From Blasia pusilla (lineage: Eukaryota): DNA of 64,000 bases. The stretch lies in NCBI GenBank assembly GCA_050084515.1, contig CM114271.1, positions 7,564,001 to 7,628,000 on the forward strand, given 5' to 3'. This document shows positions 1 through 62,800 of this stretch, in pieces; within the stretch, counting starts at the first letter, position 1; each line of letters begins with the position of its first letter. The notes under the pieces are model-generated. The model ran no database searches. It was not told where the DNA came from and saw only the letters and a list, made by a program, of their open reading frames with translations. The position numbers and the translations under genes are program-made.

Positions 1-99
1 CTCGAGTCTTGCCCCCAACCAGTGCCTCAACCGTCTCGGTAGGCATGGGTCTCACCAACGCAAAAAATGTAATATGTTTCATCCTCAAGTGACCCTGCT

Positions 100-1065
100 C
101 AGCCACTCCTAAGCTGAAAATCCATGTCAAGCGGTTCAAGTCCATCACCTGACCGAAGATATGATGTCATGATGCCTCTAAGAGGAACGGTATTTTCGTC
201 ACTCCTGTGGGAAATCCCATCGCTCGCTCTCGCTCATTGGCGTTATGCTCCACCAACCTTTACATATGGTCATCCCAAACCAAGCCAGGTCGAGCCTCCT
301 TGAATGCATAGGAAGCGGGAAAACTCACCAATGTGGGAAAGGCTGCCTGTGGCATGCCAATCCTGTTGACTACAGTCAACGGAAATCCATCATTGTGCCT
401 CACTGCTTGTGATCGACGACCTCGATCCAGAATTGAATCCACCAAAAAATCAGAGGGGTGCTCCACTCTTGCATGCACCCTCTATAAAACCTCATGTGGC
501 ACCAAGTTGGTCCACCAAAGACGCGGGCAATGTGTTCGTGAACCTACACTCGCCGCATCCAACCACACTGTTGAGCCGATCCATGCACGCACCTGATGTG
601 CACTCATCACCACACGAGACCTCAAATCGCCCAAAATCGGCACATTCTCGGGAATGTATGCTGGAGAACAAGACTAATGCTCCTTTAAATATTGTAGGAT
701 CCGCATCTTCTCCCAAAACAACCTGGACCGCGAGTCAACTAATCCGCTACCCCGTCCAACACTCGACTGGCCTTGACACGGCCAACCAACAATGACCAAG
801 TCTATCGTCCCTACCCGCTTCAAGTCCTACGCCCCCAACAATGAAATGTCCCTTGGTAGAGAACTCTAGTATGCCTGGACAACGGACGCAGACAACAAGT
901 CGGGAAAACGAAGGCGTAACTGCGCCACATGGCAAAGTGAAGCGCGCCTCGTAACATCATCAATCTCCACATACAGGTACTATTGTATGCGTACTCTTGC
1001 TTGCAAAACAGTAGCTAACCTAGTGCTGGTCCCTCCAAAGAGATCCAACACCCAAATACCCTCCT
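100..1065 (-). pseudogene. DNMT3-like cytosine-5 DNA methyltransferase domain within retroelement pol (stops and frameshifts)
   Basis: Manual translation gives motif I GIWVLDLFGG, motif II YLYVEIDD, motif IV DLVIVGWPCQGQSSVGRGSGL (about 741-805), motif VI AYIPENVPILGD, motif VIII LDAASVGSRTHCPRLWWTNL, motif IX ERERAMGFPTGVT and motif X HIFGQVMDLN, all in canonical order. Confidence 0.92.
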
Positions 1066-1439
1066 CTGAGATGCACCACACAATTGGGGTGATGTCCAAA
1101 GGGGTCATCATAGCACTCTTGGCTACCTTGGGTTTCTCTGACCCGTCATGCTCTTGTGCAAACGTCTTGCTCCACACGGTCTGCACATGCTCAGTGGTTA
1201 AACATCGAAGCTCCTCAGTCGAGCCTCAAAGAGACACCACTCCTCTCCATAGAAATGTTAGGAACATGAGTGTCCTTTGCATGGACGTGTCTCTCAATCA
1301 AATCACTAGGCCAAGTGATGGCCCTGCTAAATGCTGGTAAGGTCGCGATCTCTCTTGGCCGGCGCTCAATCACTGCACCTGTGAATCAAACGGGTAATGA
1401 GCTAAGGCGCCGATCATCTTATTGCCATCCTAGTCTATA

Positions 1440-2462
1440 GGACGTCGACTCCTCCAAATAATCCAGGGAAAACCCCATCGGGTACAACACTGCTCCACCA
1501 ACCAAGACTTTGCAGGACTCTACATCAGTCACTATCGCCTTGGCTCGCACCACGGACTCATCTGTAGGATATCCCGGACGAATCCTCACCACAACCTTCT
1601 GTCAGGTGATATACTCTATGGTACTCGCTCCACCCAAGAATGTATGTATCCAGAATGGACAACGATCCACATCGGTCCTCGTCAAGCCCAAACCTTTGAA
1701 TACTGCTTTCCCCAACATCATGGGTTGCGCTCCTGAATCCAACAAGATGCGTTGCGGACTAAAAGCTCTACCTCCTAGACTCACCAACTGGAAGACCTCT
1801 CCTTGGTTGTCTAGCAAAAAAACACCAAGAGAAGCCATGGCAATCTGTGTTGCGGGTCTAGCAGGTATCTCTGCCATCCTAGCATCCGTAGCCTGCCAAG
1901 AATCTGACGTGGACAGCCCAAGCATCAGCTCCAAGGACAGGCCCATCACCTCCTCTGCAATCACCTCTGAACATGATGCAGGAACTCCAACTCCACGCTC
2001 ACATAGCATAGCGGCCAGCCGGAAAACCTCGGCGGGTGTACCTCCCAACGTTATAACATGAGAAGTAGAAAATAAAGGAGCACGGTACACAACAGTGGCC
2101 GCCCCCAACAATGTGCTCGACACATGCTCCTTTTGAGCATAAGCAATAGGAGTCGTCGCACTCGCTTTTCCCATCGCCTTCCGTGCTTGCACACCAATAA
2201 CATCACCAACTCTCCGAGAACTCTTATCAGGACCCATCAATGGGATCCTCATTGCCTCGGCCAATGTGAAGGATTGAGAAAGCCTAGTGTGTTTCTTGGC
2301 TTCCCATCGTTGTGGATCCAACTGTGCGGCTGCTCCACGCGTAACAACTACGGCGGCCTCCATATGGGCAACCCCGCACATCCAACCAGGATCCTCCATA
2401 TCTTTGGCGGCTCCATAAGACGTTGATGCCATGGATCTAGCATCAGGTAACCTCAATGCCAT
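1440..2462 (-). pseudogene. Retroviral-type aspartic protease region
   Basis: ORF 1602..2462 contains RILLDSGAQPMMLG. The downstream VLVGGAVLYP segment is in a shifted frame. Confidence 0.8.
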
Positions 2463-2503
2463 AGCGGCAATCTGCTGCTGTAGCTTCTAGATCTGAGCAG
2501 CCA

Positions 2504-3920
2504 TCATAGCCTCATGCCCGATGTCTCCCTCGACGCGTCTAGGTGGGACTCTAGCTCTTCCACGGGCAACTCCACCACCCCCTTAGGCGAATCCAACTCC
2601 TCATCCCCCAACAAGACCACATGATGTGCGACCTCTAGGCCGGCCCACCCGGACCGACAACTAGCTCTGGTGCCCTCTCTGGCCTCGGTCGGAACATAAC
2701 TCAGGATGAAGTTGAAACACCTAGTGCATATGTGACCATAGCTCTGAAAATAGTCACACTGATAACCTCTTGGTGCAGCACCATCTCCTCCTCCATGCTG
2801 AGGCACGCGACTTTGACCCTCACGAGTGCAATCGCGTTGATGATGGGCTCTACCACATGACCAACAAGTAATTGCAGGCGGCTGCTGCTGAGCCGCATTT
2901 GAAGGCGCAGGTCTCTGTGGCACGGCCTCCCGGTATTCTCCCTGAGCTCGTGGTGCCACAGACCTATCTTGGAATCCACATTGCTGCACTTGTGGTACAG
3001 GCAATCATGACTGCTCTCGCCTAGAATCCATGGTGGCTACGGTCTCCTCTGCCATGCTGCGCTCAATATTCTTGGCGGTCCTAAAAACATCTCTCAACGT
3101 AGGGGAGGTGTTCATAAGAAGCACCCCCTCCCGCACACATGTCCGCAAGGTCCGGTCCAGCATCGTGTTTCATAAGCGCATAGCCAGAGCCTCTGTCACC
3201 CCCTAAGTGACGTTAATCAACCGGCGTAAGTGGTTATAGGCCTCATGCAAACTCTCACTCGGGTGCCTCTGGAAGTCGTGGATGCTCCGCAACTTCTCCG
3301 TCTGTTCCCCCTGGTAGCTCGCCCTCAACTCAGCAAAGAACTCAACCACGGGGTTGAACTTGGGACAAACTCGACTGGACGATGCAACTGCTCCAATGCA
3401 AGTCACCCCTCCTACAACATCATTGGTGGAGGAACCCTCTCTTACCTCCTCCTCCTCGTCGGGAAATGGTTCAGTCCATGACACATAGTATGGGTCATAG
3501 TAGAGTCTCCAAGCCTCAATCTCATGGTCATATCTCTGCAAGAACTCATGGTAATCGTCCATGGGTGCCCCGCCTAAATGTTGGAACATTTTTTTCCATT
3601 CCATAAACGGGTTAAAATCTTTGGAGTTCCTAGCCCGTTGTGAGTCACACCAACTCCTAAACTCTACAATGAAGTCGTGTAACTCTATAGTGCCTATAGC
3701 ACCCAAAAACCTACGCGGTCCTCTATCCCGGTCATCCATCTCGTACACCCAACTGGTAGGACCACTCAATGTGTGTGATGGATCACTAGCACACTCCTCT
3801 ACACTCTCCCCCTCGTCTGAAGAAGACATAGAAAGAGATCGAGGTGGTCTCTCAGGTGGAGACTCTCAAAACCTCGCACCACTCCGGGTCAACCCTCTAG
3901 AGCTACTCTCAGGTCCACCA
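2504..3920 (-). pseudogene. gag with CCHC zinc knuckle(s), degenerate
   Basis: ORF 3203..3829 is retrotransposon gag-like and ORF 2504..3004 contains CWSCGRAHHQRDC. Confidence 0.75.
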
Positions 3921-6479
3921 CCTCGCCTCTCAAAGTCTCAAAAGGATGCCGTGGTGACCCTTCTGCCCCCCTCACACGATCACTCTCAACCTCACGAGTA
4001 ATCACTCAAGCACTCAACTAAACATGCGGCACTCAATCCACACTCTCTCACTAAGACGTGTGCTGTGCGGCAATAAGCAGTGCAGTGCAAAAAATAGAAG
4101 ACTGTCCTATCATCTTATCAAAAAGACATACCCTCAACTCTGGACATCCCACACAGGTCTATGTCCCCTAAACCCATACATCAATGATGCTCTCAGCATC
4201 TGCACAAAATCCAATATCCCCAAATAACTTCCCAATACCCAAAAATCACTAACACGTGCACGGCACAAGACCAGAATGGATAACCTGACAACAAGTATCA
4301 ATGTCGCCCCTGAGCAATTGAAAAACCTTGGCCCCAACTCGGACGTGAAGACAACTCCTCCAAGCAGCAAGTCGTACTCCTTTGGTATTGACGATGCTCA
4401 AATCTCCTGGATGTGCGGTGCGGGTCCAGCGGTACGGTGCGGCACTCGCGGCACGGAACGGCTACAAACGGCACGGCATGGCACTCAGGAATGGGGTGCT
4501 GCACTTAGCGGCGTACCCTCCTAGACAACAAACACAATCTGCTCCTCAATGATGGTGCGGCTCGGCGATCGAGACGATGCGGTGCGGCCACAAGCGGCAC
4601 AACGCGGCAATCGGTGACGCGTTGCGACTACGGGCGTCAAGGCACGGTACTCAATCGTCCTCCAGAGGCTATAAATCATGGCATAACAAAGCGGATGGAA
4701 CACTACGACCCCATCAATAAAAAAATGCAAACGGCCGGCTGCGAACGCAAGCAGCCGCGACGGTCTGGGACAGAGATTCAGACGCCCGGATCCACAGGCG
4801 GCAGAAACGTAGGGTCGGATGGAGCAATGCACGGTTGCACGACGGCTCACTATTTTGTTGGCACTAGGAGGTACGAAAACCGGGTAGCGGCCTTTGAGCG
4901 TCGACGGACCATACAGCTTACAACGGCGGTAGGAAGTGCACAGTTGGTTTGCGCGTCTCTGGGACAGTCGGCTAGAACGTGGTAGGATAGATATTGTCCC
5001 CCGCTAAATTTTATATATATATATATATAAATTTTTTAACTAGAATAACCCCCCGAGGAAATTAGATCTCCACTATCTTTCCTTACTTGACAGCCCCCCA
5101 CCTGACAGATCTGGAAATCGAATGCCTTACCACAAATCCCTCCTAAGATTGAGGGTCAACACCCCCCAAAAATGGGATCTACTCAACCTACCTCCAAAAT
5201 GCTGAATTCATTTGTCCTATCCACCAAGTAAACTGATTTTTTTTCTACCTCTCAAGAAAGAATTTCTACCCAAAAATTTTGAAATTTCCCTCACACCTTG
5301 GAACGGTGGCTATGGCAGCCCAACAAAAATGATCATAACTCCGTGCTCCAATCTCCAAATTGTGCACCATTTCTTCAACATCGTACACCACTTCCCGATC
5401 TAGGACCTCATCAAATTGGTTTCTCCATTTAATTTTCCACCATAAACTGACAGGGACTCTCATGCAATCCAACGTCTCTTTCTCCTACACAAAATTTGGC
5501 TGCGCTTCCGTGCTGATTTCTCCCGGAAAAAATGTAAAACCTGTGAAAATACAGCAAGCTACGTGGTGCTCCCGAGAGCACTATGGCATGGGGCAACCTG
5601 CGCCTATACTCAATCCCTATAAAAAAATTGGGCAGCGCTTCCTCGCGCCACTCTTCCACACGAAAAATTGGCAAAAGAAACATCAAAAGTAAGCCACTCT
5701 TGCTTCGGTGAGCACTCCCATGAACCGTTGAACAAGGAATACAATCCCCAACCTGAAAAACCAGCGAGTGACCAACGAGCTCCCCCATGAAGCTCTCTCA
5801 CTCACTCATTCTCTCTTTGTAAATCAAGATCCAATATCTCTCAACACCATAGCTCTCAAATGTGTGCACCCTCACATGTCTCTCTAAATGTCAAACCAAA
5901 CCCACTCTCCTAATGAGAGGCTTGGGTTACACTTTTAAGGCAAGCAAGACCATAGCTCCACTGCCTCATGCCAAGAGGTTCAACAAAAAGAGAATGAGCT
6001 CTCAAGCTCTCTCTCTTGGAGGTATACCACCTTCCCTCTCCCAAGCTCTCTCCTCGATAACCTTTGCTTGCAGGTCACCTCCTTGGCTCTTGACCTACTG
6101 TAGCAGGTCAAGGGCCACTTCCCAAAGTGGAAAGTCACCTATACTCCAAATGGAAACTTACCCAAAATAGTAAGTTTCTCTATATGGCTCCAAATGAGCG
6201 GAAACAAAGGGGAAACATGGTCTCTCAGGTTACCCATGGCCTCAAAAGTCATCGTTGATCTCCTGAGGCTGTCCTCCAATATCTCCAAAGTTGCTCTACT
6301 AGATCTTGCCAATCTATCCTAAAAGTCGTGACAACATAGTTTATAATGATTTTTCAACTCCACAATTTTATCAGGTCAATCTGTAACTTTTTGGGCAAAG
6401 TACTCCTAACAACAAAAGTTGGCAACAACGGAAGAGACCATGGGCCACTTTCCAACTTTTATTCGAGTGGGTCATTTCT

Positions 6480-27100: not shown

Positions 27101-27159
27101 CATCATCAAGGCGGAAGTCGCAGAGTCATTAGAAAACGAGAATATCCGTGATACAACGA

Positions 27160-31250: not shown

Positions 31251-33163
31251 CAACTCTCCTGCTGGCTCCCGGGCTTGATGCTCGTGAAGGAGGAGGTAAA
31301 GGTGCCGCCCGAGGTGCTCTGATCGGCTCCTCGCTCCCTGAGTCTCCAAAGGGGTCCCAGAGCGACTCTTTGTCCGACTGCAAACTGGCAGGGGACGTAG
31401 TGGGAAATTTGTCCCTTTCTTTCTTCTTGGTCTTCGTCTTTGGATGAGGACGAAGACTCGGAGACGAACCAGGGGTCTCAAGCCGGTTCTTGTCTCCTCG
31501 CCCCTCTTTGTGCCCGATCGGCTCGTGGCCGCTGCTCGCCGAAGAGGGCCGAGAGCCTTCCATAAGTTTCTTGGGGGATTTGGCAACTCGCAATCACCCC
31601 CACGGTGGCGATAGGGTAAGGGTCCATGGATGGAGGTTAACTACTGATTCTTTTTACATCTACAGGAGGGTGCCTGGTGCTCCTATGCTTCCTGCCAGGT
31701 TTTCCTCCCATAGACAGAAGTTTTCACCAAGTACAACTATCGTCCATGGGCGAAGCACCGTTCGGCGACCGGTTCTTTGACCATTCTAATTAGTTGGCCT
31801 ATCTTCTCTAGCACCAATGCAGCAACCGTATTGTTATCTTCGAGCATACATTGTCTTACAGGGGTCGCTAGAGCTAGCCGATGGTCTTTAGTAAGAATTA
31901 GAATGTGGGTTGTCTAGGAGCGAAGCTTCTTTCTCCGTTCCCCTGCTTCCCCATGGATCTTTCTCTCCCTTCTCACCAACGATATGATCCCGGCGTGGCG
32001 TAAAAAAGTCTTCGGCTCTATGTAATGTCTAAGTGTTTCTTATTTACAGTCAATTGTAGAGTTCGATCCCCAAGAGGATCATTGTTGGATGAAAAGAGAG
32101 TATAAGGTGATGATTATATTGTAAAAGTGTAAGTGATTATGTAATTCAATTGTAGTATTCCAGTATCAGCTTCCGATCCTTCTTAGTACCTATGTTTTCT
32201 TCTTCAATTCTCTCGAGTGGAGTTTAAAGGACGCTCAGGCAATTTGTTCTCTCATCATCTCGGAACCTGACAGAGACCTCAAGAATAAAGCTGGCTTCTC
32301 CTACTTTCGGAACTCAATCCGTCGGGGTAGGTTACTCTCTGTCAAACAGATTTCATACAACTTTATATTGATTATTCCATGGATGAGAAAGGTTTGTCTG
32401 ATTCACTCTTCACTCGGCAGACCCAAAAAGAATATTCAGACATAAGCATCGCACATCAAAATGATTGAATGAATGCTTTACTACTCCATCAAGAATTGGA
32501 ACACTTCAAAGTATCTACAAGCTCGAGAGGGTACATCTCTCTTGCTCGGACCATTCCTACAGCATAAGGACTTCATGAGCGAATGATGATAATAGCTTCG
32601 TCTGTTTCTTAAATATTCTCGAGTAGGATCGTTTCTATGATCCAGCGTTCTTGATGAAGGGTGTGTCTTTTCAATATCTCAGAACTACCTAGATCTATGG
32701 TTCTCTTAGCTTTTCCTACGATCCCTATGAATCCGCGGTACAAAACTGTCCTAACTACCAATTTGATACAAAGGGTCGCGCCCTTTCCTAGTCTCATTCT
32801 GTAAACTATGTGTCGTTTTGAATCTCAATTCGCTGTGCTAAATTTTCGGAGGACGAAGTTCTTCTGTCTTCTTCGTGCTTCGTTGAAGAACGAGGTACTT
32901 TGTATATAGAGCTTTGTTAGACTTCGTTAAACTTCGTTAAGCTTCGCTAAGCTTCGCGTTGAGCCTTTATACTTCTTTACAGCTTTTGACTCTCCTCTAA
33001 GGCAAATCCTTGATCTTCATCTCTCTGCCTTGTCTTCGGAGCTTGGTGATTCACTTATTCTTCTTTATAATAATAGATAATCATAATCAAAATCATAATA
33101 TACAAGAGTCTTCATTGAATAAAATGATACATTCTTCAAGATTACATAATTGTGGGTATCACA

Positions 33164-34040
33164 GACCTTAAGAAGGCATAAGACACTGTATGGCGTGACG
33201 GGCTATCTTATAGCTTGTGGAAGGCGGGGCTGAGAGGGAAAATGTGGAGGGTGGTGGAGAAGATGTACCTAAACACAAGGAGTAGAGTTCTGGTGAATGG
33301 CCAAAAGAGTGGGACATTCGACATCAAGCAAGGAGTGGCTCAAGGATGCCCGCTCTTCCCCACTCTCTTCAATATTTTTGCTAAAGCCCATTCGCGGCCA
33401 ATCTGGGGATTCCACTGATTTTTCACTTTTCTAAATTTTGTGCAATTTGCAACTCGTCGGACTCAGAGGGGTTGCCAAAATGTGGAAGAGGAAAAAAAAT
33501 TGTGGGAGTGCTTAAGAACTTAGCAGAAAAGTGCAAAAAAATTCACACAAAAAGTTCCTCTTTTCAACCCAACGGAAATTCCCTATTGGAAGAAATTGAG
33601 GATAGTGGACTAGGCATACGGGTGGGCAAACAACTCTGTTGTTGCCCTCATGTTTGGTGATGACTTTGGTGGCCTCGAGGAAACAGGAGAGAAACTCCAA
33701 GAGATGATCTCCCTGACCAAAATCTGGTGTGACATGTGGGGCATGGAGGCAAATGTAGTGAAGTGCGGTGTGATGATTTTCAATGGCAAGGAGGAGGACC
33801 AAGACCAACAGTGGTATTGGGGCAAACAAGAGATCCCTCGTGTGGCTACATACACCTATATGGGCATAGAATTCTCGAAAGATTGTATGTGGGATGCACA
33901 CATTAAGAAGACTACTGAGAAAGGCCACAAGAAGGTGAACGGTATGTCCAAATTCCTACATTGTCGGGATATCACATCAGAAGTAAAGCGCTCTCTCATT
34001 TTGCATACCATTCATCCTCGACTCCCCTGCTATCCTAAAA
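33164..34040 (+). pseudogene. LINE ORF2, 3' part (RT core), with an insertion of about 190 bp
   Basis: GLRGKMWRVV...QGVAQGCPLFPTLFNIFA [insert] NSLLEEIE...MFGDD...YTYMGI. Confidence 0.88.
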
Positions 34041-35165: not shown

Positions 35166-35202
<37 letters not shown>

Positions 35203-35211
35203 GAAGAGAGT

Positions 35212-35247
<36 letters not shown>

Positions 35248-35270
35248 CTCTCAAGAACTCTCTCTCAAGC

Positions 35271-35365
<95 letters not shown>
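35165..35365. repeat. Interrupted (TC)n microsatellite
   Basis: TC runs with short interruptions. Confidence 0.97.
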
Positions 35366-35367: not shown

Positions 35368-36109
35368 CAACAAACATCATTGTCACCAAAGACACACACA
35401 ATCCCATGTTAACTCATGGCATCCAAAAAACGAGACAAGAAGTACCAAAATATCTCTGATAAATCAAGATCCAATCTCTCTCAACACCATAGCTCTTAAA
35501 TGTGTGCACTCTCACATGTCTCTCTCAATGCCTATGTTCCCAAGTCACCTCCTTGGCTCTTGACTTGATGTAGGAGGTCAAGGGCCACTTAACAAAAATA
35601 GAAAGTCAACCATAGTCAAAATGGTACTAACCTAAAATAGTAAACTCCTCAATATGGCTCCAAATGAGCCGAAACGAAGGGGAAACCTGCTCTCTCAGGT
35701 TTCTTGGGGCCTCAATAGGTCATCCTCAACCTCCTAGGTCTATTCTCCACTACTCGCAAAGGCGGTCTCCTAGATCTCACCAATCTATCCTAAAAGACGT
35801 GATAAGTGTCGTGCGCATACACATCGCTACACAACATACATCGCTATCACCGAACACACACACACAAACACACACAATCCCATGCTAACTCATGCCATCC
35901 AAACAAGACAAGAAGTACCAAATATCTCCAATCGCCCTCCTAGTTGGTGTTTAGGTCCCTCTAACTCTAGATAGCCATCTATCCCTACCAACCATGACGT
36001 ACATCTCTTGGACGCTAAGAGCAAGAAGGCTGGGTGCTCATGGGGCCCCATCATTAGTCGCCTTCTTGTCATCCATGTTAGACATACAAGTCGAAATGTA
36101 GAACTACCT

Positions 36110-36265
36110 ACTCTATGTACATCAAGGACACATCCATCATCCCTCACGAACCCTAGTGAGAGGTGGCGTCAAGCATGCCGTATGCCATCCTCTTGAATAT
36201 CCATCATAGACTAGCATAGTGGCTGTAACACGGGCATAACCACACAACATATATCGCAAGCATAC
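36110..36265 (-). pseudogene. PHD finger at the integrase C-terminus (degenerate)
   Basis: YMLCG..ATMLVYDGYSRGWHTACLTPPLTRVREG*WMCP*CT fits the C4HC3 pattern, with several Cys codons changed to Tyr. Confidence 0.85.
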
Positions 36266-36299
36266 AAGAACTACAGCTAAGCTCGGATCAACTGTATAG

Positions 36300-37450
36300 T
36301 CAATGTTTCGAAGGTGACATAGTGCACAGTTACGCACATGGTCCTTCCAAACCATACCATCCCGTCCCTCCAAGCAGAGAACACCTAATGGCAAAACCTC
36401 ACGCACTCTCAAGATGGTGCGCCCTGCAATCACATCCAACGTTGTGGATGTCGTCTGCTCCAAGTAGACATAGTTTCCCTGATGAATACTCCGAATAGTA
36501 GGTCGATAACCACACCCCGAGTAGTCGCATACCTCAATGTATCCCGATGTTGCGCAATCGCCAAGTTCTCAAATGCCATGGGCATCAACCTCCGAAACAA
36601 TTCTGCCTTCTAAGAACATGCTCGCATCCATACATCAGGGTCATCAAGGTTCAACACCTCAACAACATCTTGATGAATGGCTGCAGGTAAATTAGGCTCT
36701 CGGCCATACAAAAGCAAGTACTGTCAGAAAGACGCTAAGGATGCCTGCCTGTTGAATCTGTATCCCATCGCCAATCATGGCAACTGGAGGTCCCAATCTC
36801 CTAGGTGACCTTTCTCCAAGCCATACTTATGTAGTCCTCTCTTCTTTGTCTACACAACCCACTCCGCTAGTCCATTTTCCTCACGATGATCTCGTAAAGT
36901 AGTGTGGTGGTCGATCAGTGCCTTATCACACAAGCCCTAAAACTCCCCGCGGACCTCTATACCGTGGTCTGTCAACACCTCAATTGGTGTGTCGTAATGA
37001 CTCAACATTGAATCTAGGAAGGCATATCCTACTCCCTCACTCGCTTTGTCAGGAAATGCAACCAACTCTATCCACTTCGAGAAGTGCTCGACCATCACCA
37101 ACACATAACAACTATGGCGCTTTGTCAAAGGCAAAGATCCTGCAAAATCCAAACTCCATCTATGACCTAAACCCATGATCGGAAGTGGATGCAACTGTGG
37201 ATTTGGAGCATTGAATGATGCTCAAACTCGATCACACACCATGTATCTGGCAACAAACTACTCAACGTCAGTCTGCATACCTCGCCACCGATATTGAATC
37301 TGGAGCAAGCTTTACGTCCGCTTCACTCCAAAATTACCCAACTCCTCGTAGGCATGACACACCAAACGTGCTCTCTGCAAAGGATGAGGCACTACATGCA
37401 CTCTATCATCCTCCCACACTCGCAACAAATGTGTCCCCTCCCACTAGAAC
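36300..37450 (-). pseudogene. DDE integrase of the MTase-Gypsy
   Basis: HPLPIMGLGHRWSLDFAG...YVLVMVEHFSKWIE...EVLTDHG. Confidence 0.9.
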
Positions 37451-37739
37451 CGTCTGGCTCGCCGTAGGATCCAATCCCGCTCTCTAGCACCCATTGTGCT
37501 CGCGATGCTGCCAGTACGCAAATACTCCAAGACCACTCCATCTTCGTGAATGTCTTGGCCACCTCTTGTCTCCACACCGGCCTCTGGATCTAAGGACTCT
37601 CCATCTGATTTGGCCATCGAAGTCTTAGAAATCTGGCTCTCCATAGCCAACAAACCCAAATAGGCTGACGCATGCCATACTAGCACTAACTCCTCATCAC
37701 TATCACCATGCCAACGAACTCATATCACACTTGCTGACT

Positions 37740-38325
37740 CGAGCATGGGTTACAGCTCAAACCATGTGCATCCTGGTTGAGCGTTCTAGGTCTATACACC
37801 ACCTAGAAGTCCTGCAACAAAAGAGCCCACCTTGCAAGCTTCCCTGTAAGATTATCGGACTCCTTCAACCACTTAAGTGGCTAATGATCAATAATGATGG
37901 TAAAGAGATTGCCGAATAGATAACTTCTGAAATGTGGGACACGCCACACTACAGCCAAGCACTCACGCTCATACGAGCTATACTTTGCCTCTGCTATGTT
38001 GTTCGAGCCACTAGCTTAAGCCACCACAAACTCTCTACCATCATCGTCATGCTGGGTGAGCACAGCTCCAAGCCCCAACATGCTCCAATTGATATGCAAG
38101 TGGAAAGGACACCCCCTGATCAGTCTCCTCAATATAGGCGCAAACCCAAATTTATCCTTGAGCATTTGAAATGCTCTCTCATGCTCATTCCCCTAGTTCC
38201 ACTCTTGATCCACCTTGATCAGCAAGGTTAGCAGCTTCACAATCGAACTAAACCCCTTGACGTACCATCGATAGAAGTTCGCCAATCCCATAAATGCATA
38301 AACTCGACTCACACCTCTAGGGCAT
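37740..38325 (-). pseudogene. RT thumb/connection and RNase H of the MTase-Gypsy
   Basis: AFMGLANFYRWYVKGFS, GLGAVLTQ, YSSYERECLAVVW, DH*PLKWL and KLARWALLLQ. Confidence 0.9.
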
Positions 38326-38327
38326 GG

Positions 38328-40053
38328 TGTCGCGACCCTCATGACCAAACAAGTGCCAAGCGGAACATCGGAACATTAGCGGGCTCACGCTAAGATGGTT
38401 TGCGCGTTGGAGTTGTCTCAAAGAGGAGACAAGAGACGAGACGCGAGCGAGGAGTTGCGTTTCAGGTGTTATGGTCGCGACTGAAAAACCTGGACCAAAT
38501 GCGGAATGAGACTTGAAAGAAGTCGAGTCTAGGAAGTGGGTTGCCAAAGGGAAGATCTGGATTTGGAACGCCACTAGCGTTTGAGAGTTTCCGACTATAT
38601 TTATGGCCATAACTTTTAGTGCCGAGATGCATTTGGAGTAAATAAGGGTGCATTAGAAAGCTTATGGAGATTCAGTCCAAACGCACTAAAGATCGTTGCA
38701 AACGCATAAGCAGAGGACAAGATACAACCCGAAAACAACTGTAAGTGGAGTCGGGTTGAGGGCCACAATGAAGGGCCCGACCCTCTTTTCCCAAAGGGAA
38801 GGGGTTATTGGAGAATCCCAGAAGTACTAGTAAGAGGGAAGGTCTCCGAGAGTGCTTGGAACCCAAACCCCACTTTGGGCGCCGCGGGGCCAGTGGGCCC
38901 AAACTCAGGGGAAAGGACGGAGTCGAGCCAGACATTGGACTTGTTGAAGGTGTTGGTGGAGCAGATGTCCCAGCAAAGCAAGCGGATTGCAGAGTTAGAG
39001 GCCACTCGAAACCCGGGTGTGGGCAAAAAGCTCTGCAAGACGAACCTACCCACGCCATTCACGGGAGTGGGACGCTCGCGGAAAGTGAATGATTTCCTTA
39101 CGGAACTGGAACTGTACTTCGAGGCGCAGAGGGCTGTTGAGCAGGACAAGGTGACGGTAGCCGTTACTTTCCTGAAGGATCATGCTCTACAATGGTGGAC
39201 AACTGAATGAGAGGAATATCTGGGCGGCGAGTCACCTCTGAGTTGGGAGGAGTTCAAGGAGCTGATTGGGGATTGGTTCAATCCGAAGTACCAAGGGTTG
39301 CGCGACACGGTGGAATGCGTTCGGATGCGGCAGAGTGGGTCCTTAAGCGCGTGTGTGAGGGAGTTTAGTGCAAAACTGACTTCAAGTCCAAAGATGGATG
39401 AGCACGCGAAGAAGGCTATCTTCATTAGCGGACTCAAGCCGAGCGCTGAAAAGACCCTGTACCGAATGCCGACGTTGCCAGAGACCTGCGCGGATCTTCT
39501 GAAGCTAGCGGAGCGGATTGGGGACGATGAGGTCCAAACCCAGAAACCCTTCGAGCCAAAAGGTTTTTCGAAGAAGTCTAAAAATAAGGAGACGTTCAAA
39601 AGAGGCTGGAGTGGGGGTCAGCACGAACCAGGAGAGTCGTCTACCCCGGCAGCAAAACGAGTGGAACTTCATGCAAAACCGAAAGGAGGACAACACTCAA
39701 AGCCAGGGAACGGCAAGGTCGTATGCTACAATTGTGGCGAACCGAGGCACCTGTCGAAAGGGTGTTCGAAACCGAAGGTTAGTAAAGGGAGTATGATTGC
39801 GTTTGGTGCTAAGCATCTGTTGGCGGGCGATCTCGAGACGTCCCTTCAAGTCACCAAGAGGACGCACAATTTGGTGTACCTAAGATCCAAGATTGCTGAT
39901 CGCGATGTGTTGTTGCTCGTGGAAACAGGTGCTTCGCACTCCTTCCTAAGCCCGAGAATCGTGAAGGAATTCGGGCTGTCTACCTCTAAGGCGGACGAGC
40001 CCATTCGAGTGGGATTTGCAGGAGGCAAGGAATCAGAAGTCTCATCGGACTTC
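38328..40053 (+). mobile_element. Nested fragment of the chromovirus Gypsy family: partial LTR (38328 to about 38888) fused to gag-PR
   Basis: Starts TGTCGCGACC and is the reverse complement of part of the LTRs at 49278-50273 and 59804-60803. Gag reads FLKDHALQWW and CYNCGEPRHLSKGC; protease reads LVETGASHSF. Confidence 0.9.
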
Positions 40054-40289
40054 TGATTTGGTCTTGGGTCATAGTACCCGGAACCATGCTCAATGTTGTG
40101 GCTACCATCTCCTAGCGTACGTGCAAAATATTCCAAGAAGTCCAAGGGTGTCTCTCCCGATCACCCTTGGTGTGTCGATCTCCTTGGGTCTTGCCCCCAG
40201 CCATTGCCTCGACCGTCTTCGTAGGCATGGGGCTCACCAATGCAACTGCTGTGATTTGTCACATCCTCAAACAACGCTGCTCAACTACT

Positions 40290-41245
40290 CCTAAGCTGAA
40301 AATCCATGTCAAGCAGTTCAGGTCAATTGCATGACCTAAGACATGACATCGTGATGCCTCTGATAGAGACGGTACAACCGTCACTCCTGTGGGGAATCCC
40401 ATTGCTCGCTCTCACTTATTGGCGTTGAACTCCACCAACCTCTTTACCTGGTCATCCCAAACCAAGCCAGGTCCAACCTCCTTGAATGCATAGGAAGCGG
40501 GAAAACTCACCAATGTGGGAAAGGCTTCCTGTGGCATGCCAATCCTGTTGATCACAGTCAACGGCGATTGATCATCTAGCCTCACTCCCTATGATCAATG
40601 GCCCGGATCCAATATAGAATCCATCAACAAATTGGATGGGTGCTCCACTCTTGCATATGCCCTCCGCAACACCTCGTGTGGTACCAAGTTGGTCCACCAA
40701 AGATGCGGGCGATGTGGTCGTGAACCCACACTCACCGCATCCAACAAAACTATCGGGCCAATCCATGCACGCACCTGATGTGCACTTGTCATCACACGGG
40801 ACCTTGAATCGCCCAAAATTGGTACATTCTCCATAATGTATGTTGGAGGATGAGATTAGTGCTCTTGCTAGTATCACAAGATCCGCATCATCTCCCAAAA
40901 CAACATGGACCGAGAGTGAGCTAATCCGCTACCTCGTCCAGCACTCGACAGGCCCTGATATGGCCAACCAACAATGATCAAGTCTATGGTCCCTACCCGC
41001 TCCAAGTCTTGCATCCCCAACAATGAAATGTCCCTTGGTAGGGAAGTCTAGTAACCCTGAATGGCGAATGCAGACAATAAGTCCAGAAAATGGAGGCATA
41101 ACTGCGCCACAAAGTGAAGCGCGCCTTGCAACATCATCAATCTCCACATACAGGTACTACTGCACGCGCACTCCAGCCTGCAAAACAAGAGCTAACCCAA
41201 TGTTGATCCCTCCAAAGAGATCCAACACCCGAATACCCTTCTCTG
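40290..41245 (-). pseudogene. DNMT3-like C5-MTase domain, copy 2 (catalytic Cys changed to Tyr)
   Basis: GIRVLDLFGGINIGLALVLQAGVRVQ*YLYVEIDD, DLIIVGWPYQGLSSAGRGSGL, MENVPILGD, LDAVSVGSRPHRPHLWWTNL and ERAMGFPTGVT. Confidence 0.92.
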
Positions 41246-41669
41246 GGATGCACCACACAATCGGGTTGTTGTCCAAAGGGGCCATAGCAGCACTCCTGGC
41301 TACCTAGGATTCTTCTGACCCGTCACACTCTGGTGCAAACGTCTCGCTCCACGCGGTCTGCACATGCTCAGTGGCTAAGCGTCAAAGCGTCAAAGCTCCT
41401 TAATCGAGCCCCAAAGCGGCACCTCTCCTCCACGGTCTGATGCGGCTACCATGACACTTCTCTCCATAGAAATGTCAGGAATGGGAGTATCCTCTGCATG
41501 GACATGTCCCTCAATCAAATCACTTGGCCAAGTGATGGCACTGCTAAATGCTGCTAAGGTCGCCACCTCTCCTCGCCGTCACTCAATCACTGCATCTGTG
41601 AATCGAGCGGGTAATGAGCTAAGGCGCCCATCACTTGACTATCATCCTGGTCCATAGGACGGTGGATCC

Positions 41670-44190
41670 TCCTAGTAATCCAGGGAAAACCCCATCGGAT
41701 AGAACACTGCACCACCAACCAAGACGTTGTAGGACTCTACATCAGTCACTATTGCCTTTGCTCGCACCACGGACTCATCTGTAGGATGTCCCGGGCAAAT
41801 CCTCACCATTACCTCATATCGGGTGATATACTGTGTGGTACTTGCTCCACCCAAGGATGTCTATATCTGGAATGGACAACGTTCCACATCGACTCTTGTC
41901 AAGCCCAATCCTCTTAATGACGCTTTCCCCAACATCAAGGGTTGCGTTGCTTAATCCAACAAGACGCGTTGCGGACTAAAAGCTCTACCTCCGAGTGTCA
42001 CCAATTGGAAGACCTCTCTTTGGTTATCCAGCAACACAACACCAAGAGAAGTCATGGCACGCTTTATCGCGGGTCTAGCGGGCATCTCCGCCATCCCTGC
42101 AGCCGCAGCCTGCCATGAATCTGACGTGGACGGCTGGAGCATCCGCTCGAAGGGCAGGTCCATAACCTCCTCTGCAATAACTTCTGAATGTGATGCAAGA
42201 ACTCCAACTCCAGGCTCACATAGCATAGCGGCCAGCCGAAACACCTTGGCGGGCGTACCTCCCAATGTCATAACATCGAAAGCAAAAAATAGTGGATCAC
42301 GGTATACCATTGTGGCCGCACCCAACATCGTACTCGACAGATGCTCCTCTTGAGCATTAGCAATAGGAGTCATCACACTCGTTTCTCCCATTGCCCTCTA
42401 TGCTTGCACACCAATAACATCACCAACTCTCCAAGAACTCTGATCAGGACCCATCGATGGGGTCCTCATTGCCTCGGACAATGTGAAAGACTGAGGAAGC
42501 TTGGTTTGTTTCCTAGCTTCCCCTTGTTGTGGATCCAACTTTGTGACTGCTCCATGCGTCACAACTATGGCGGCCTCCATTTGACCAACCCCGCACATCT
42601 AACCAGGATCCTCCATATCTCTGGCTGCTCCATATGATGTCGATGCCACGGATTCGGCATCGTGTAACCTCAATGCCATAGTACCAATCTACTCCTGTAG
42701 CTGTTGTTTCTGAGCAGCCATCCCAGCCTCATGCCCGGTGTCTCCCTCGACGCGTCTAGGTGGTGGGACTCTACCTTCTCCACAAGCAACTCCACCACCT
42801 TTTCGCGAAACTCCAGGTCCTCGTCCCCCAACGGGACCACCTGGTGCACGATCTCTAGGCCCACCCAGACCGGCTACTTGCTCTGGTGCCCTCTCTGGCC
42901 CTCGGTCTGGACGTAACTCAGGGTATAAACTGAAACACATGGTGCATGTGTGACCATACCTCTAATAATAGTCACACTTATAACCTCCTGATGCAACACC
43001 ATCTCCTCCTTCATGCTGAGGCACATGTCCATGACCCTAATGAGTGCAATCACGCTGATGATGTGCTCCACCACATGACCAACAAGTAATCATAGGCAGC
43101 TATTGTTGAGTTGCATATGAAGGCGCAGGTCTCTATGGCACGGCCTCCCGATATCCTCCCTGAGCTTGTGGTGCCACAGTCGACCTATCTCGGAGTCCAC
43201 GTCGCTGCACAAGTGGTGTAGACAATCGTGACTGCTCTCGCCCAAAACCCATGGTGGCTATGCTCTCCTCCGCCATGTTGCGCTCAATGTTCTCAGTAGT
43301 CCTAAAAACATCTCTCAACGTAGGGGAGGTGTTCATAAGAAGCACCCCTCCCGCACTCGTGTCCGTAGGGTCTTATCTGCATTACGTACCATGATTGGAT
43401 AGCCTAAGCCTCTCTCACCCCTTGAGTGACGTTGATCAATCCATGCAAGCGAGTGTAAGCCTCACGCAAACTCTCACCCGGGCACCTTTGGAAGTCCTGG
43501 ATGCTCCGCAACTTCTCTGTCCGTACCCCTTGGTAGATCGCCCTCAACTCAGCGAAGAACTCAACCACGGAGTTGAACGTGGGATGGACCCGACTAGATG
43601 GTGCAACAGCTCCACTACAAGTGATCCCTCCTAAAACATCCCTAGTGGAAGAGGAAGTAGCCTCTCTTGACTCCTCCTCCTCATCTGGGAACGGCTCCAT
43701 CCATGACACATAGTGAGGGTCATAGTAGAGTTGCCATGCCTCAATCTCCTAGGCATATCTGTGGGAGAACTCATGGTAATCGTCCATGGGTGCCCCTCCT
43801 AAATGCTCGAACATACCGTTCCATGCTGTAAACGGGTTGAACTCTCTAGAGTTCCTAGCCCGTTGTGAGTCACACCAACTCCTAACCTTCTCAATGAAGT
43901 CGTGTAGCTCTATAGTGCCTACAGCACCTGAAAACCTACGCGATCCTCTACCCTGGTCATCCATCTCGTATGCCCAACTGGTAGGACCACTCAATGTGTA
44001 TGGTGGATCACTAACACACTCCTCTACATGCTTCCCCTCGTCTGAAGACAACACAGAAAGAGATCGAGGTGGTCTCTCACGTGGAGACCATCGAAACCTC
44101 GCACCACTCCGGGTGAACCCTCCATAGCTACTCCTAGGTCCACTACCTCGCCTCTCAAAATCCTGAAAGGACGCTGTGATGACCCTCATG
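41670..44190 (-). pseudogene. gag and protease of MTase-Gypsy copy 2
   Basis: ORFs 43749..44189, 43404..43709, 41951..42391 and 41672..41854 are homologous to copy 1. Confidence 0.8.
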
Positions 44191-46215
44191 CCCCTCTCAC
44201 ATGATCACTCTCGATCTTGCGAGTAATCCCTCAATCACTCAAACTAAATATGCGGCACTCAATCTACCATCTCTCACTGAGACGTGTGCTATGCGGCAAC
44301 AAGCCGTGTGGTGCGGCAAATCAACTGATCTATCATCTCATCGACAAACCATCCTCAACTCTTGACATCCCACATAGCTCTATGTCCCCTAAATCCATAC
44401 ATCATCGATGCTCTCAACATCAGCACGGAACCCAATACCCAAAAATCCCTCACGCATGCAGGGTAAGAGACCACAATGGATAACTTGACAATAATGTCGA
44501 TGTCGCTCCTCAGCAACTACAAATCTCAACCCCAACTTGATCGTGAAGACAATTCCTCCAATCAACAAGTCGTACTCCTCTCATACTGACCCCGCTCAAA
44601 CCTCCTCGATGTGCGGTGCAGGTCCCGCAGTCCGATGCGGCACGAAACGGCTACAAACGGCACGACACTCGGGAATGGGATGCGACACTTGGCGGCATAC
44701 TCTCCTCAATCAGAAATTCCCACGCTCTACTCCTTAGTGAAGGAGCGGCTCCATGATCGAGAAGATGCGTTCCGACCACGAGCGGCATAGCGCGGCAATC
44801 GGTGGTGCGTTGCGGCTACGGGCGTCACCGCACCGCAACAATCACAACATAGCAACATGAAATGAAAACTCAAATACCATAACCCGAGGTCACCTGCCAT
44901 CATACGTTGATGATAAAACTACAATGACGGTGGCAGCCAAAACAAAGTATGTGATGGCGATGCAAGTCAGAGAATCAAGGATCGTCGTGGAAGACCCGCC
45001 ACTCCGTAATGACGGAAATGGCAACCAAGGGTGGACAACAGCCAAACGTGGCTCTGAGTAGCGCTAAGCGGCGGCGGCGGTGGACGGTGGACAGTTGATG
45101 GTGATGGTTGACCATTGATGGTGACGGTTGACGGTCGATGGCGGACCGTTGATGGTTACTATGTGTGGCGACAATCGCCGCCAGTGCGGTGGCTGGTTTA
45201 GGGTTTGAATAATTTTACCCTAAAAATCACCTAGCACTGAAAATTTTGCAAGATTGACCATAACCTTTTTTTTTGCAATCCAAATTGGTCACCATTTGTT
45301 GCACAACGTGCACAGCTTCACGATCTACAACGACGTCAAATTTTGAATCGGATCTTCGTGTAAAAATTGACAGGGACTCTTGTAAAGCCCCACATCTCTT
45401 TCTCCTACACAAAATTTGGCAGCGCTTCTACGCTGATTTCTCCCAAAGAAAATGTAAAACCTATGAAAATGAAAATCAGCAAGGTATATGGTGCTCCCAA
45501 GAGCTCTGGCATAGAGAAATTCGCCCTCATACTCAATTACTATCAAAAGTTGGGCAACGCTTCCCCGCGCCACTCTTCCACACAAAAAATCGGCAAAGGA
45601 AACATAAAAAATGAGCGGCTCCGGCTCCGGTGAGCACTCCCATGAACCCCAACCTCCAAAACCAGCAAGTGACCAGTGAGCTCCCCCTTGAAGCTCTCTC
45701 ACTCATCTCATTCTCTCTTTGTAAATCAAGATCCAATCTCTCTCAATACCATCGCTCTCAAATATATGCATTCTCATATGTCTCTCTCAATATCAAACCA
45801 AACCCACTCTCCTAATGAGAGGCTTGGGTTACACACACAAGGCAAGCAAGACCATAGCTCCGTCGCCTCATGCCAAGAGGTTCAACAAAGAGAGAATGAG
45901 CTCTCAAGCTCTCTCTCCTTGAGGTATACTCCTCCCCTTTCCCAAGCTCTCTCCATGGTAACATGTGCTCCTAAGTCACCTCCTTGGCTCTTGACCTGAT
46001 GTAGGAGGTCAAGGGCCACTACAAAAAAATAGAAAGTCGACCATATACTCAACATGGTACTTACCTAAAATAGTAAGTTCCTCAATATGGCTCCAAATGA
46101 GCCGAAACAAAGGTTTCCTGGGGCCTCAGTAGGTCATCCTCAACCTCTCAAGTCAGCCTCCACTACTCGCAAAGGCAATCTACTACATCTCACCAATCTA
46201 TACTAAAAGACATGA

Positions 46216-46349
<134 letters not shown>

Positions 46350-57051: not shown

Positions 57052-59803
<2,752 letters not shown>

Positions 59804-62800
59804 TGTCGCGCCCCTACTCTCCTTGAACGTCAATCTTTAGTGTTGCGGAAGCGTGCGTTCAGTAGGTCACGAACTCATCGCCGATCTGCACCCAAACACG
59901 CCCTCTTGTTAGTCGGATTTGGCCAACCGGCGTTCCAACCCACTGAGTCCTCAACTCGGCGTCTCATCAAGCTCAATCTTGCTTAGTTCCTAGTTTCCAA
60001 CACATGGCAAGTCCTTCAAGACTTGGAACAAACTTTCTGGTTAGTCCAAGGATCTGAAACGGCACTTGCGCGCCTAGCGATCCCAACTGTTCAACGGTCC
60101 TCGGGTGAGTTCCGAACTGAGACCCAAGTAATTGAGTCGCGGGGTGGAATCCAAGAGGGATGTCTAAAATCGCCTCACTGGACTTGGTGCAGGTTTTCCA
60201 ACTCAACCCCCAAACTCGCGTTCGTTCAGGTGCCCTTGAGCGCCCGCGGCGCCCAAAGTGGGGTTTGGGTTCCAAGCACTCTCGGAGACCTTCCCCCTTA
60301 CTAGTACTTCTGGGGTTCTCCAATAACCCCTCCCCTTTGGGAAAAGAGGGTCGGGCCCTTCATTGTGGCCCTCAACCCGACTCCACTTACAGTCGTTTTC
60401 GGGTTGTATCTCGGCCACTGCTTATGCGTTTGCAGCAATCTTTGGTGCGTTTGGACCGGCTCTCCATAAGATTTCCAACGCATCCTTATTTTCTCCAAAC
60501 GCATCTTGGCGCTAAAAGTTATGGCCATAAATACATTCGGAAACTCTCAAACGCTAGTGGCGTTCCTAATCCGGATCTTCCTTTTGGCAACCCACTTCCT
60601 AGACTTGACTTCTTTCAAGTCTCATTCCGTGTTTGGTTCAGGTTTCTTAGTCGCGACCATAACACCTGAAACGCGACTCCTCGCTCGCGTCTCATCTCTT
60701 GTCTCCTCTTTGAGACAACTCCAACGCGCAAACCATCTTAGCGTGAGCCCGCTAATGTTCCGATGTTCCGCTTGGCACTTGTTTGGTCATGGGGGTCGCG
60801 ACACTCACCCCTCTTTTAGAGGTTGATGCCCTCATCAACGCAAACTTTTATTATGTCAAGTCTCCTGGGCAGCCTACCCCTTGACATTGAATTGCGTTCT
60901 GGTGGCTAACCCGCAATTCCTCTTAGTCTCTAGTTGTCGCTTTGCCCCACTTAGAATTATTAGCCTCTCATCTTCGATAAGCATGGACTAGTTCCAAGGA
61001 ACTAACCTATCAAATAAGCAAACTAAGTGTGCAACCTTAGACTCTTTCGACTCATTACTGTAAACATCACAACTGTTTACCTGGTCCACAAATCGTACTA
61101 CTATTGGGTCGCTCTCGTATTCGACTTAGGCGCGTCACTAAGTTTACTTATGTGGCCACAAGTAAGATCACCCCAAGCCCCAAGACAGACTTCATCTGCC
61201 CCGCCGATGCTAGGGCGAGCCCGAGTGTAATCCAACACAAGGTCCTGTTCTAGGTGCTTATCCACATACGAGCTCTCACCTCAAATACTCCTTGTCTGTC
61301 CTCTTGTCGTACATTCTAAGTCTATGATGAACGACTCATAGCCATGCACTACCACATATAAATTGCAATCAACACTGGTATCGAATCTCCAAATCCATAC
61401 ACTCCTTTATTGCAACACTAGCATATTCTAGTTACAACGGCCTTCGGCCCAAGATTCCACTGATTACAAGTCATGTCTCTAGCTTCTCCTCGTACTAACG
61501 TATGTGCTTCGCTTGAAGTCACGCAAAAACTCTTGCGCGTGTTCCAAATCCGCCTCCGCAATCCAAGTCGCCTCCTTCACATGGTAGCCCTTCCATTTTA
61601 CCAAGTATTCATACTTGTTGGCCCAACGCCTCGAACGTAAGATGGTCTCCACCTCAAACTCCGGCTCTTCATTTACGATGACCGGGTGCGGTCTCACCAC
61701 CTGTCTCCGCTCGAAACGTCCATTATCTTGAAGATATTTCTTCAACAATGACACATGAAAGGTCGGGTGAATCTTGAACTCGTCCGGCAGCCTCAACGTA
61801 TACACATCCTCAAACAGGTTTGCCACAATCACATACGGTCCAAAGATACTTGGCGGGACCCATGAACAACTCTTTCGGAAGAGTGAGATTCTTTACACTC
61901 AACCACACTTGTTCTCCAACTTGGAATCGTACTTGGTGCCGACTCTTGTTAGCATGCTTAACGTACCTCATTTGAGCCTATGCAAGACTTCGCCTCACGC
62001 GCTCTTCTCGTTCTCGCATCTCTACCAACAAACCTTCTGCCGTCGCTTGTCGTGTTCGTGCCAATGTAGTACCCTTCGAAAGGGCTAGATCAAGAGGCCC
62101 TTCGGCTCGTCGTCCATTTGCCGGAAACGGAGATTCTCCAATTGCGAATGCTTGGTCGAGTTTAAGATTCCGCCATGCTTAGCCACACGACCCAATCGCG
62201 TTGATCAAAGACCGACATAATTCCTCAAATCTTGATTCACGATAGAGTTTACCTTTTCGTCTATCCATCCGTGCGTGGGTGGAAAGCCGTCATGAAACTC
62301 AGTTTGGTCTTAAACCTTGTGAACAAGTGCTTCGAAAGCTAACACTGGTAAACTTTGGATCGATCTGAAACAATGCTCCTCGGCAAACCATGAGCACGCC
62401 ACAGCTATCGAGGAATAGTTGCGCCGCCGATACGCCGTTCGCGGAATCCACCGTCGGCACGAATCTCGCCAACTTGCTAAACCGATCAACAATCACAAGT
62501 ATAGCGTTGTATCCCCCAGATTCCGGGAGACTCGTGATGAAATCCATACTCAAACTTTGCAAGGGTCCTTCGGGGATTGGCAAGGGATGCAGCAAGCCCT
62601 GTTTCTTATCATAAGAGACTCTATTCGCTTGGCAGGTCACGCAGGTCTTCACATATTGAGCAACATCCTCCTTCATGTTGGGCCAAAAGAACCGCTGAAG
62701 ACGAGAGCAGCTAGCGTAGATTTCTCTCCTTTATGTCTTGCCAAGGGCCCGTCGTGACATTCCGCTAACATCTTGGTTCGCGATTCGCCTTGCCCTACAT

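Follow-up and report, generated by a model that had tools for sequence, protein, structure and literature searches.

A PHD finger at the end of the integrase in a bryophyte Ty3/gypsy family with a DNMT3-like methyltransferase, traced from a decayed copy in Blasia pusilla

A Dnmt3-related methyltransferase within the Pol of a Gypsy retrotransposon is described for KnitGypsy-Dnmt3 of Klebsormidium nitens in passages of de Mendoza et al. 2018 (PMC5890265), which also report de novo CG methylation by DNMTs of retrotransposons. According to passages of a 2025 paper (PMC12344493), retrotransposons of streptophytes and dinoflagellates harbour some of the DNMT3s. In regards to PHD fingers, a passage of PMC6673714 describes them as widespread in retrotransposons, a passage of PMC8557442 counts the PHD among the common accessory domains of elements in Chlamydomonas, and a figure legend of PMC9940879 presents Gypsy-7a_cRei with a PHD. 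Chromodomains are reported to direct integration to heterochromatin. Here we analyzed a stretch of 64,000 nucleotides from Blasia pusilla (assembly GCA_050084515.1, contig CM114271.1, positions 7,564,001 to 7,628,000 of the forward strand; hereafter, the window), which holds on its minus strand a decayed retrotransposon referred to as copy 2. The family of this element is almost certainly a bryophyte Ty3/gypsy family whose intact polyprotein has the order gag, protease (PR), DNMT3-like methyltransferase, reverse transcriptase (RT), RNase H (RH), integrase and PHD finger.

The words "PHD" and "chromodomain" are absent from the main text of PMC5890265 (the figures, including the domain architecture in Fig. 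4c, lay outside the search), and "PHD", "chromodomain", "PF00628" and "Marchantia" are absent from the three of its supplements that were searched as text. In the literature covered by full-text searching, outside of which most subscription journals fall, the pairing of a DNMT with a PHD-bearing integrase, the bryophyte members and the two positions of the DNMT were undescribed. Dnmt3-bearing streptophyte Gypsy elements and PHD-bearing green-lineage Gypsy elements have each already been published separately, and the bryophyte member is new. The Chlamyvir clade, considered as a PHD-bearing precedent, was rejected: two papers describe chromodomains there, and the word "PHD" is absent from them.

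The decayed PHD finger and its intact relatives

Open reading frames (ORFs) of at least 70 amino acids were scanned singly with Pfam, and both the PHD finger and the DNMT of copy 2 were missed. Translations read through the stops, with X at each stop, were therefore required. A preliminary description of the locus had proposed a degenerate PHD finger after the DDE core of the integrase. The quoted peptide was confirmed on the minus strand, where the read-through from 36568 to 36089 ends in ...LRYMLCGYARVTATMLVYDGYSRGWHTACLTPPLTRVREGXWMCPXCTX, directly after the integrase.

The finger occupies 36119..36253 on the minus strand, as defined by the read-through, Pfam and alignment with relatives. 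Three of its seven cysteine ligands are now tyrosine, namely the first (36253-36251), the third (36208-36206) and the fourth (36199-36197). The second (36244-36242), fifth (36175-36173), sixth (36130-36128) and seventh (36121-36119) cysteines and the histidine (36184-36182) are retained; copy 2 thus keeps five of the eight zinc ligands of the C4HC3 type, short of the full set. Two in-frame TGA codons lie within the finger (36139-36137 and 36124-36122), and a TAG codon (36113..36115, minus strand) stands where five of six close relatives terminate, 1–5 residues past the last cysteine. A search of the copy 2 read-through with PF00628, the check proposed in the preliminary description, gave a match of 20.3 bits (E 5.7e-4) over profile positions 10–47 of 47, below the Pfam gathering score of 24. 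Taken alone, this sub-threshold finger is suggestive and insufficient. These points weigh against the identification in copy 2 itself: the finger is sub-threshold and lacks three ligands, and the PHD claim rests on the relatives.

The relatives carry that claim. The 160-residue copy 2 stretch matched six longer proteins at E values of 1e-36 to 1e-52 and 63–69% identity. The matches covered 64–85% of the query, PF00628 is precomputed in all six proteins, and several of them additionally have rve, H2C2 and RNase H domains. In five of the six, the intact pattern C-x2-C-x11-C-x2-C-x4-H-x2-C-x14-C-x2-C aligns with copy 2 column for column and stands at the C-terminus, 1–5 residues before the stop. 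In the sixth, the Marchantia model P0015, the last two cysteines are out of place and the protein continues into DNMT-like pieces.

The position of the finger was also compared with that of the chromodomain in chromoviruses. In copy 2, the finger follows an SH3-like C-terminal integrase domain and linker at 36254..36517 (minus strand), assigned by alignment and from the model of the relative P0014. The AlphaFold model of P0014 (mean pLDDT 74) contains the catalytic core, a long helix, SH3-like strands at 270–320 and the PHD at 343–387, the last with a block pLDDT of 85–91. The comparator named in the preliminary description, an unrelated chromovirus in the window, was confirmed: its ORF at 61482-61892 (minus strand) matches SH3_Tf2-1 and Chromo in the Pfam scan of ORFs, with the chromodomain at 61509..61658 (minus strand; PF00385, E 2.7e-14, residues 79–128 of the ORF). 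No Chromo match was obtained on the window read-through of the family (P0001) at E values up to 10, nor on the relatives scanned. These results identify the PHD finger as a true C-terminal part of the integrase, placed after the SH3-like domain where chromoviruses hold the chromodomain, which it replaces.

Polyprotein architecture in the relatives

The preliminary description had left room for the integrase-PHD part and the gag-PR-methyltransferase part to belong to different families. Single ORFs were found to hold both parts, and this proposed refutation therefore fails. In P0025 (2358 amino acids), Pfam placed PR at 663, DNMT at 953, RT at 1443, RH at 1685, H2C2 at 1925, rve at 1996 and the PHD at 2300–2344, and P0024 and P0061 showed the same order in a scan of 15 proteins. 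The PHD scores exceeded the gathering score in P0025 (42.7 bits), P0024 (33.7 bits) and P0140 (37.8 bits). The long terminal repeats (LTRs) and the order PR-RT-RNase H-integrase are those of Ty3/gypsy elements, with the RT core deleted in copy 2. The methyltransferase of copy 1, a second member of the family in the window, matched Calypogeia, Marchantia and Sphagnum proteins at 41–58% identity, most of them gag-PR-DNMT models ending just past the DNMT. The Sphagnum model P0013 has gag, PR, DNMT and the start of RT, together with an integrase that matches that of the window residue by residue, and the Marchantia model P0018 joins the tail of PR, the DNMT, the integrase and the PHD.

The methyltransferase of the family is DNMT3-like, as judged from its solved homologs: all 24 PDB matches (E up to 0.001) of P0003, a Marchantia gag-PR-DNMT protein, were DNMT3A, 3B or 3C, though these matches were weak (best E 2.3e-6). 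Both window copies matched PF00145. At motifs IV and VI, respectively, [PE]C and EN[VTA] are kept in most relatives of both arrangements described below, the Chlamydomonas protein P0079 being an exception.

We examined the pairing of the methyltransferase with the PHD in a wider set. A search of longer proteins with P0016, a bryophyte RH-integrase-PHD protein, gave 524 matches; among the 120 listed, PF00628 was present in 107, PF00145 in 39 and both in 35. The full-database search with P0016 gave 150 representatives, in most of which the alignment extended to the end of the query and so included the PHD. Domains were then mapped with phmmer on 272 fetched proteins, using segments of P0025, P0100 and P0029 (P0001, the window read-through, was left out). 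The DNMT lies between PR and RT in 28 proteins, which include the bryophyte family and K. nitens P0054, and between RNase H and integrase in 122, which include P0029, P0043, P0100 and P0137. P0025, P0028 and P0061 have the order PR-DNMT-RT, and P0054 has DNMT-RT. The strict C4HC3 pattern occurred in 213 of the 273 fetched proteins. Pfam PF00145 misses many of the RT-RH-DNMT-integrase-PHD proteins, and 100–500 further residues follow the PHD in many algal relatives of this type.

All 146 DNMT-bearing proteins with at least 260 residues past the integrase core carry the PHD (9/9, 116/116 and 21/21), a share inflated by the collection of the relatives with an integrase-PHD query, which weighs against taking the count at face value. 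The co-occurrence of PHD and methyltransferase raised in the preliminary description thus holds in every DNMT-bearing relative that could be judged, and the pairing of a DNMT with a PHD-bearing integrase is the usual state in a large clade of the green lineage. P0039 and P0060 are PR-RT-RH-integrase-PHD proteins without a DNMT and with no room for one before RT.

A FastTree phylogeny was calculated from the integrase-to-PHD stretch (224 rows including 4 outgroups; fetched proteins were included if their integrase and PHD matches lay 300–560 residues apart). The bryophyte sequences clustered with P0024 and P0025 (support 97), and this clade held no member with the DNMT after RH. On the tree, switches between the two DNMT positions (before RT and after RH) numbered at least 4. 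Because 68 of its 221 inner branches had less than 80% support, no conclusion was drawn on the number of DNMT acquisitions.

Anatomy of copy 2 and its surroundings

Copy 2 lies on the minus strand between two LTRs. Its 5′ LTR (45720..46217), defined by self-blastn and a three-way LTR alignment, runs from TGTCATG at 46217 to ...TTTACA near 45720. The 3′ LTR (35457..35804) has an internal deletion of about 155 bp and is 81% identical to 45947-46215 and 79% identical to 6036-6334. The decayed gag region (42400..43964) was located by tblastn with residues 4–214 and 230–798 of Marchantia P0003; the gag/PR boundary at 42400 is an estimate. The aspartic protease region (41609..42064, frame -1) was found with residues 644–790 of P0025. 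The decayed DNMT3-like C5 cytosine methyltransferase (40127..41363) matched PF00145 at E 3.2e-8 and was mapped by tblastn with P0003 806–1213 and P0025 949–1307; the DNMT of P0025 maps to 41237-40154, at first in frame -3 and then in frame -1. Its read-through translation shows IIVGWPYQGLSS. Motif IV reads GWPYQG (PYQ), and the catalytic cysteine is therefore lost, having changed to tyrosine.

The place of the RT core is taken by a fragment of another Gypsy family on the plus strand (38328..40126), recognized by blastn, Pfam and tblastn. This foreign fragment opens with a 562-bp LTR (38328-38888) and continues through gag and a CCHC knuckle into half a protease, which extends to about 40053; its plus-strand ORFs matched Ty3_capsid, Retrotrans_gag, zf-CCHC and Asp_protease in Pfam. 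In the self-blastn, the LTR (38327-38888) matched 60804-60243 and 50273-49711 at 93.7% in reverse orientation. Residues 1308–1615 of P0025, the RT fingers and palm, had no counterpart in the window by tblastn. The RT thumb and RNase H follow at 37731..38327 (frame -3; RT_RNaseH, E 9e-28; RT_RNaseH_2, E 3e-22), with 68.9% identity to P0016 1–167.

The integrase, comprising H2C2, the DDE core and the start of the C-terminal domain, spans 36514..37554 (frame -2; Integrase_H2C2, E 1.2e-6; rve, E 1.7e-7) and is 58% identical to P0016 162–593. H2C2 maps to about 37374-37225 and the core (rve) to about 37164-36898, with the PHD after them; the Pfam scan of ORFs gave an integrase core at 36940-37221. 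Nine in-frame stops were counted on the translation. A frameshift near 36515, where tblastn passes from frame -2 to frame -1, separates the integrase from its C-terminal part, and the C-terminal domain plus PHD of P0025 maps to 36517-36119 in frame -1. Two frameshifts in all set apart the RH, integrase and C-terminal parts. In the Pfam matches on the read-through, the DNMT, RNase H, H2C2 and rve share a strand and follow the expected order. With its RT core absent, its integrase interrupted by stops, and ligand and catalytic residues lost in the PHD and the DNMT, copy 2 is a dead, non-functional fossil.

Copy 1 (2..6334, minus strand) belongs to the same family and is cut by the window edge just past the methyltransferase. 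It comprises a 5′ LTR (about 5840-6334), gag, PR (1389-1784) and a DNMT (2-1237; PF00145, E 5.9e-7) in which PCQ and ENV are retained. In the self-comparison, 6-4645 of copy 1 matched 40188-44833 of copy 2 at 81.7% identity, and 5354-6333 matched 45279-46217. The two copies differ by 508 transitions and 236 transversions. Their observed/expected CpG ratio is 0.60–0.69, versus 0.90–0.97 in two younger elements, which fits long decay under cytosine methylation. A repeat of about 300–500 bp is present three times (6036-6334, 45947-46215 and 35509-35805), and the three-way alignment showed that the LTRs start with TGTCA(C/T)G and end near ...TTTACA.

We considered whether copy 2 is one insertion or two. 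A single insertion is favoured by the common strand and right order of the halves, by the confinement of the LTR-like repeats to the outer ends, and by the (TC)n on both flanks. In the alternative, 35457-38327 and 40127-46217 would be two separate insertions of the same family that nested insertions and deletions had brought together, so that copy 2 never had both the methyltransferase and the PHD. Several observations weigh on that side. The foreign 1.8-kb fragment and the absent RT core divide the halves, and the window is densely filled with transposable elements. The two LTRs of copy 2 are 81% alike, as distant from each other as from that of copy 1 (78–79%; copy 1 versus copy 2 overall, 78–82%); because the pair is no closer than the two copies are, a juxtaposition of two same-family copies is conceivable. 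The candidate target-site duplication, GAGA at both edges, fits one insertion and is weak in its GA-rich microsatellite context. On balance, we regard two insertions as rather unlikely, and the family-level result would be untouched by them, as the intact relatives keep all parts within one ORF. The (TC)n microsatellites at 35166-35365 and 46218-46346 lie just outside the ends of copy 2, the left one at a distance of about 90 bp from the LTR, an arrangement compatible with insertion within or next to such a tract.

The remainder of the window is a dense graveyard of eukaryotic transposable elements, as seen in Pfam scans of stop-to-stop ORFs of at least 70 amino acids. Two Copia elements lie at about 13100-14800 and 51750-55470 (minus strand), and LINE pieces on the plus strand at 20056-21300 and 33182-33415. 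Another Gypsy element, younger and with an RT-RH ORF at 27163-28443, spans 22505-33167 (minus strand), with 1.2-kb LTRs (22505-23686 and 32023-33167) that are 93.7% identical. It has long gag and RT-RH ORFs and an observed/expected CpG ratio of 0.97; its integrase is discernible by eye in the read-through, below the Pfam threshold, and the two long ORFs downstream (24961-25797 and 23725-24705) gave weak coiled-coil-like matches only. Tandem arrays were found at 46350-48188 (units of about 346–350 bp) and 9739-10697 (units of 152/280 bp), and 17182-17603 has pieces in common with the former. The sites 49277-50276 and 59803-60806 have about 1 kb in common (94% identity), and the region between them includes the Copia element at 51750-55470.

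Possible roles of the PHD finger and comparison with known systems

The ligand class of the finger was approached through solved structures. Among the 60 PDB chains listed for the C-terminal 75 residues of P0014, the best match was CHD4 PHD1/2 (E 8e-18), and the others included PHF12, KMT2C, KDM5B PHD1, PHF21A, DPF3, ATXR5, KDM5A PHD1, UHRF1, AIRE and BAZ2A/B. These neighbours recognize the H3 tail in its unmodified form (K4me0 or R2me0), and to our knowledge none of the 60 chains is an H3K4me3 reader. H3K4me0 is thus a tentative candidate for the ligand of the family PHD, to which we would give slightly less than even chances.

The best explanation, which we hold with moderate confidence, is that the minus-strand segment 35457-46217 represents an old and inactive insertion from a family in which the PHD is an integrase module with a targeting role. 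By analogy with the chromodomain, the PHD may well steer the integrase. The finger looks like an accessory of the integrase because the DNMT-less relatives P0039 and P0060 keep it. We infer the histone ligand, the targeting role and the co-operation with the methyltransferase as follows: in active copies, the PHD would tether the integrase-cDNA complex to nucleosomes with an H3 tail unmethylated at K4, this tethering would bias insertion away from active promoters, and either the cDNA or the fresh insertion would be methylated by the methyltransferase, a product of the same Pol. Two points weigh against this explanation. The H3 specificity, drawn from sequence neighbours and their ligands, is a lead, and Foldseek with the P0014 model returned integrases alone (those of the PFV and Ty3 intasomes, RSV and HIV, matching the integrase part) and nothing on the PHD.

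If integration is steered by the PHD and new copies are marked by the methyltransferase, the element would contain both halves of the host silencing logic, the reading of the H3 tail and the writing of 5mC, and bryophyte and algal genomes would be a natural system for studying the choice of safe sites by transposons and a possible benefit of self-methylation for their persistence. The intact relatives, including the Marchantia and Sphagnum gene models, provide material for study, and the window copy is a fossil only. The "hypothetical proteins" P0003, P0013, P0015, P0018 and P0019 of Marchantia polymorpha and Sphagnum fallax are spliced pieces of the retrotransposon family and are not to be counted as host epigenetic regulators.

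A further-reaching possibility is that a large and old green-lineage Gypsy clade keeps the DNMT3-like enzyme and the PHD-tipped integrase as a working unit. With the order RT-RH-DNMT-integrase-PHD of most members, H3-tail reading, cDNA insertion and methylation of the site could be combined in one step by one mature protein, a self-silencing, stealthy integration, and the bryophyte/Klebsormidium type, its DNMT shifted to a place before RT, would be a rearranged offshoot. We put this forward as speculative and rather doubtful.

It is unlikely that the PHD serves a purpose other than histone reading, such as binding of a host protein, nuclear import or stabilisation of the intasome. The residues that follow the PHD in many algal relatives would fit such a role, as they make the finger not always a free terminal module. 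Its strong resemblance to PHDs that bind histone tails (E values as low as 8e-18) and its location at the chromodomain position of chromoviruses argue against it.

The preliminary description had drawn a parallel between the methyltransferase-PHD pairing and animal DNMT3, in which the ADD, a GATA-like finger plus PHD, adjoins and gates the catalytic domain. In this reading, the PHD would guide or switch the DNMT3-like enzyme of the element, and methylation would be confined to H3K4-unmethylated chromatin. The pairing itself stands, as both parts occur in one polyprotein, in every DNMT-bearing relative long enough to judge, and the ligands of the neighbouring PHDs are compatible with such guidance. 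In the 122 proteins of the RT-RH-DNMT-integrase-PHD type, moreover, the DNMT directly precedes the integrase and PHD, and both could share one mature protein; it is for this type that the ADD-like reading could hold. The parallel is weak for the bryophyte family, where about 1000 residues (RT, RNase H and integrase) lie between the DNMT and the PHD. The Pfam scans detected no ADD family in the window read-through (E up to 10) or the scanned relatives, and the PHD consists of one simple finger and lacks a GATA-like part. An integrase role is preferred because the finger is joined to the integrase, stands at a distance from the DNMT in this family and is kept in relatives that have no DNMT, and we consider ADD-like control improbable. 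Finally, a chance origin of the PHD-like string in decayed DNA, to which its score below the gathering threshold might point, is ruled out for practical purposes by the 63–69% identity to six PF00628 proteins over 64–85% of the query, five of them with intact fingers.

In comparison with known systems, the family resembles KnitGypsy-Dnmt3 as an LTR Gypsy element with a Dnmt3-related enzyme in Pol: K. nitens P0054 has the order DNMT-RT-RH-integrase and is 47% identical to bryophyte P0016 over 87% of the latter. It differs in its host, a bryophyte, with Calypogeia, Marchantia and Sphagnum as the nearest named relatives, and in its ordinary terminal direct repeats, in contrast to the DIRS-like repeats described in passages of PMC5890265. 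The two K. nitens models are partial and end before the place of the PHD, which weighs against extending the pairing to KnitGypsy-Dnmt3.

The Chlamydomonas Gypsy elements, among which REM1 (Perez-Alegre 2005) is reportedly another PHD bearer, likewise have the PHD as an accessory of Pol, and C. reinhardtii P0079 falls in the same homology set with a PHD after the integrase. These elements differ from the bryophyte family in being larger, in having a DNMT-like region between RNase H and integrase, which is degenerate in P0079, and in having further sequence past the PHD.

With chromoviruses, the family shares a small chromatin-reader module that follows the SH3-like domain at the C-terminal end of the integrase. 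This module is a PHD zinc finger, not a chromodomain, and its likely ligand would be the H3 N-terminus around K4 versus methylated H3K9. The best solved matches of the finger, in CHD4, KDM5A/B PHD1, PHF21A/BHC80, DPF3 and AIRE (E 8e-18 to 1e-8), have in common with it the pattern ...MLxCDxCxxxxHxxCLxPPLxxxPxGxWxCPxC; they differ in being host chromatin proteins. In the bryophyte family, the loop from the second to the third cysteine has 11 residues. Animal DNMT3A, 3B and 3L likewise combine a DNMT3-type catalytic domain and a PHD-type reader in one polypeptide, whereas the reader of the bryophyte family is a single PHD on the integrase, about 1000 residues after the DNMT.

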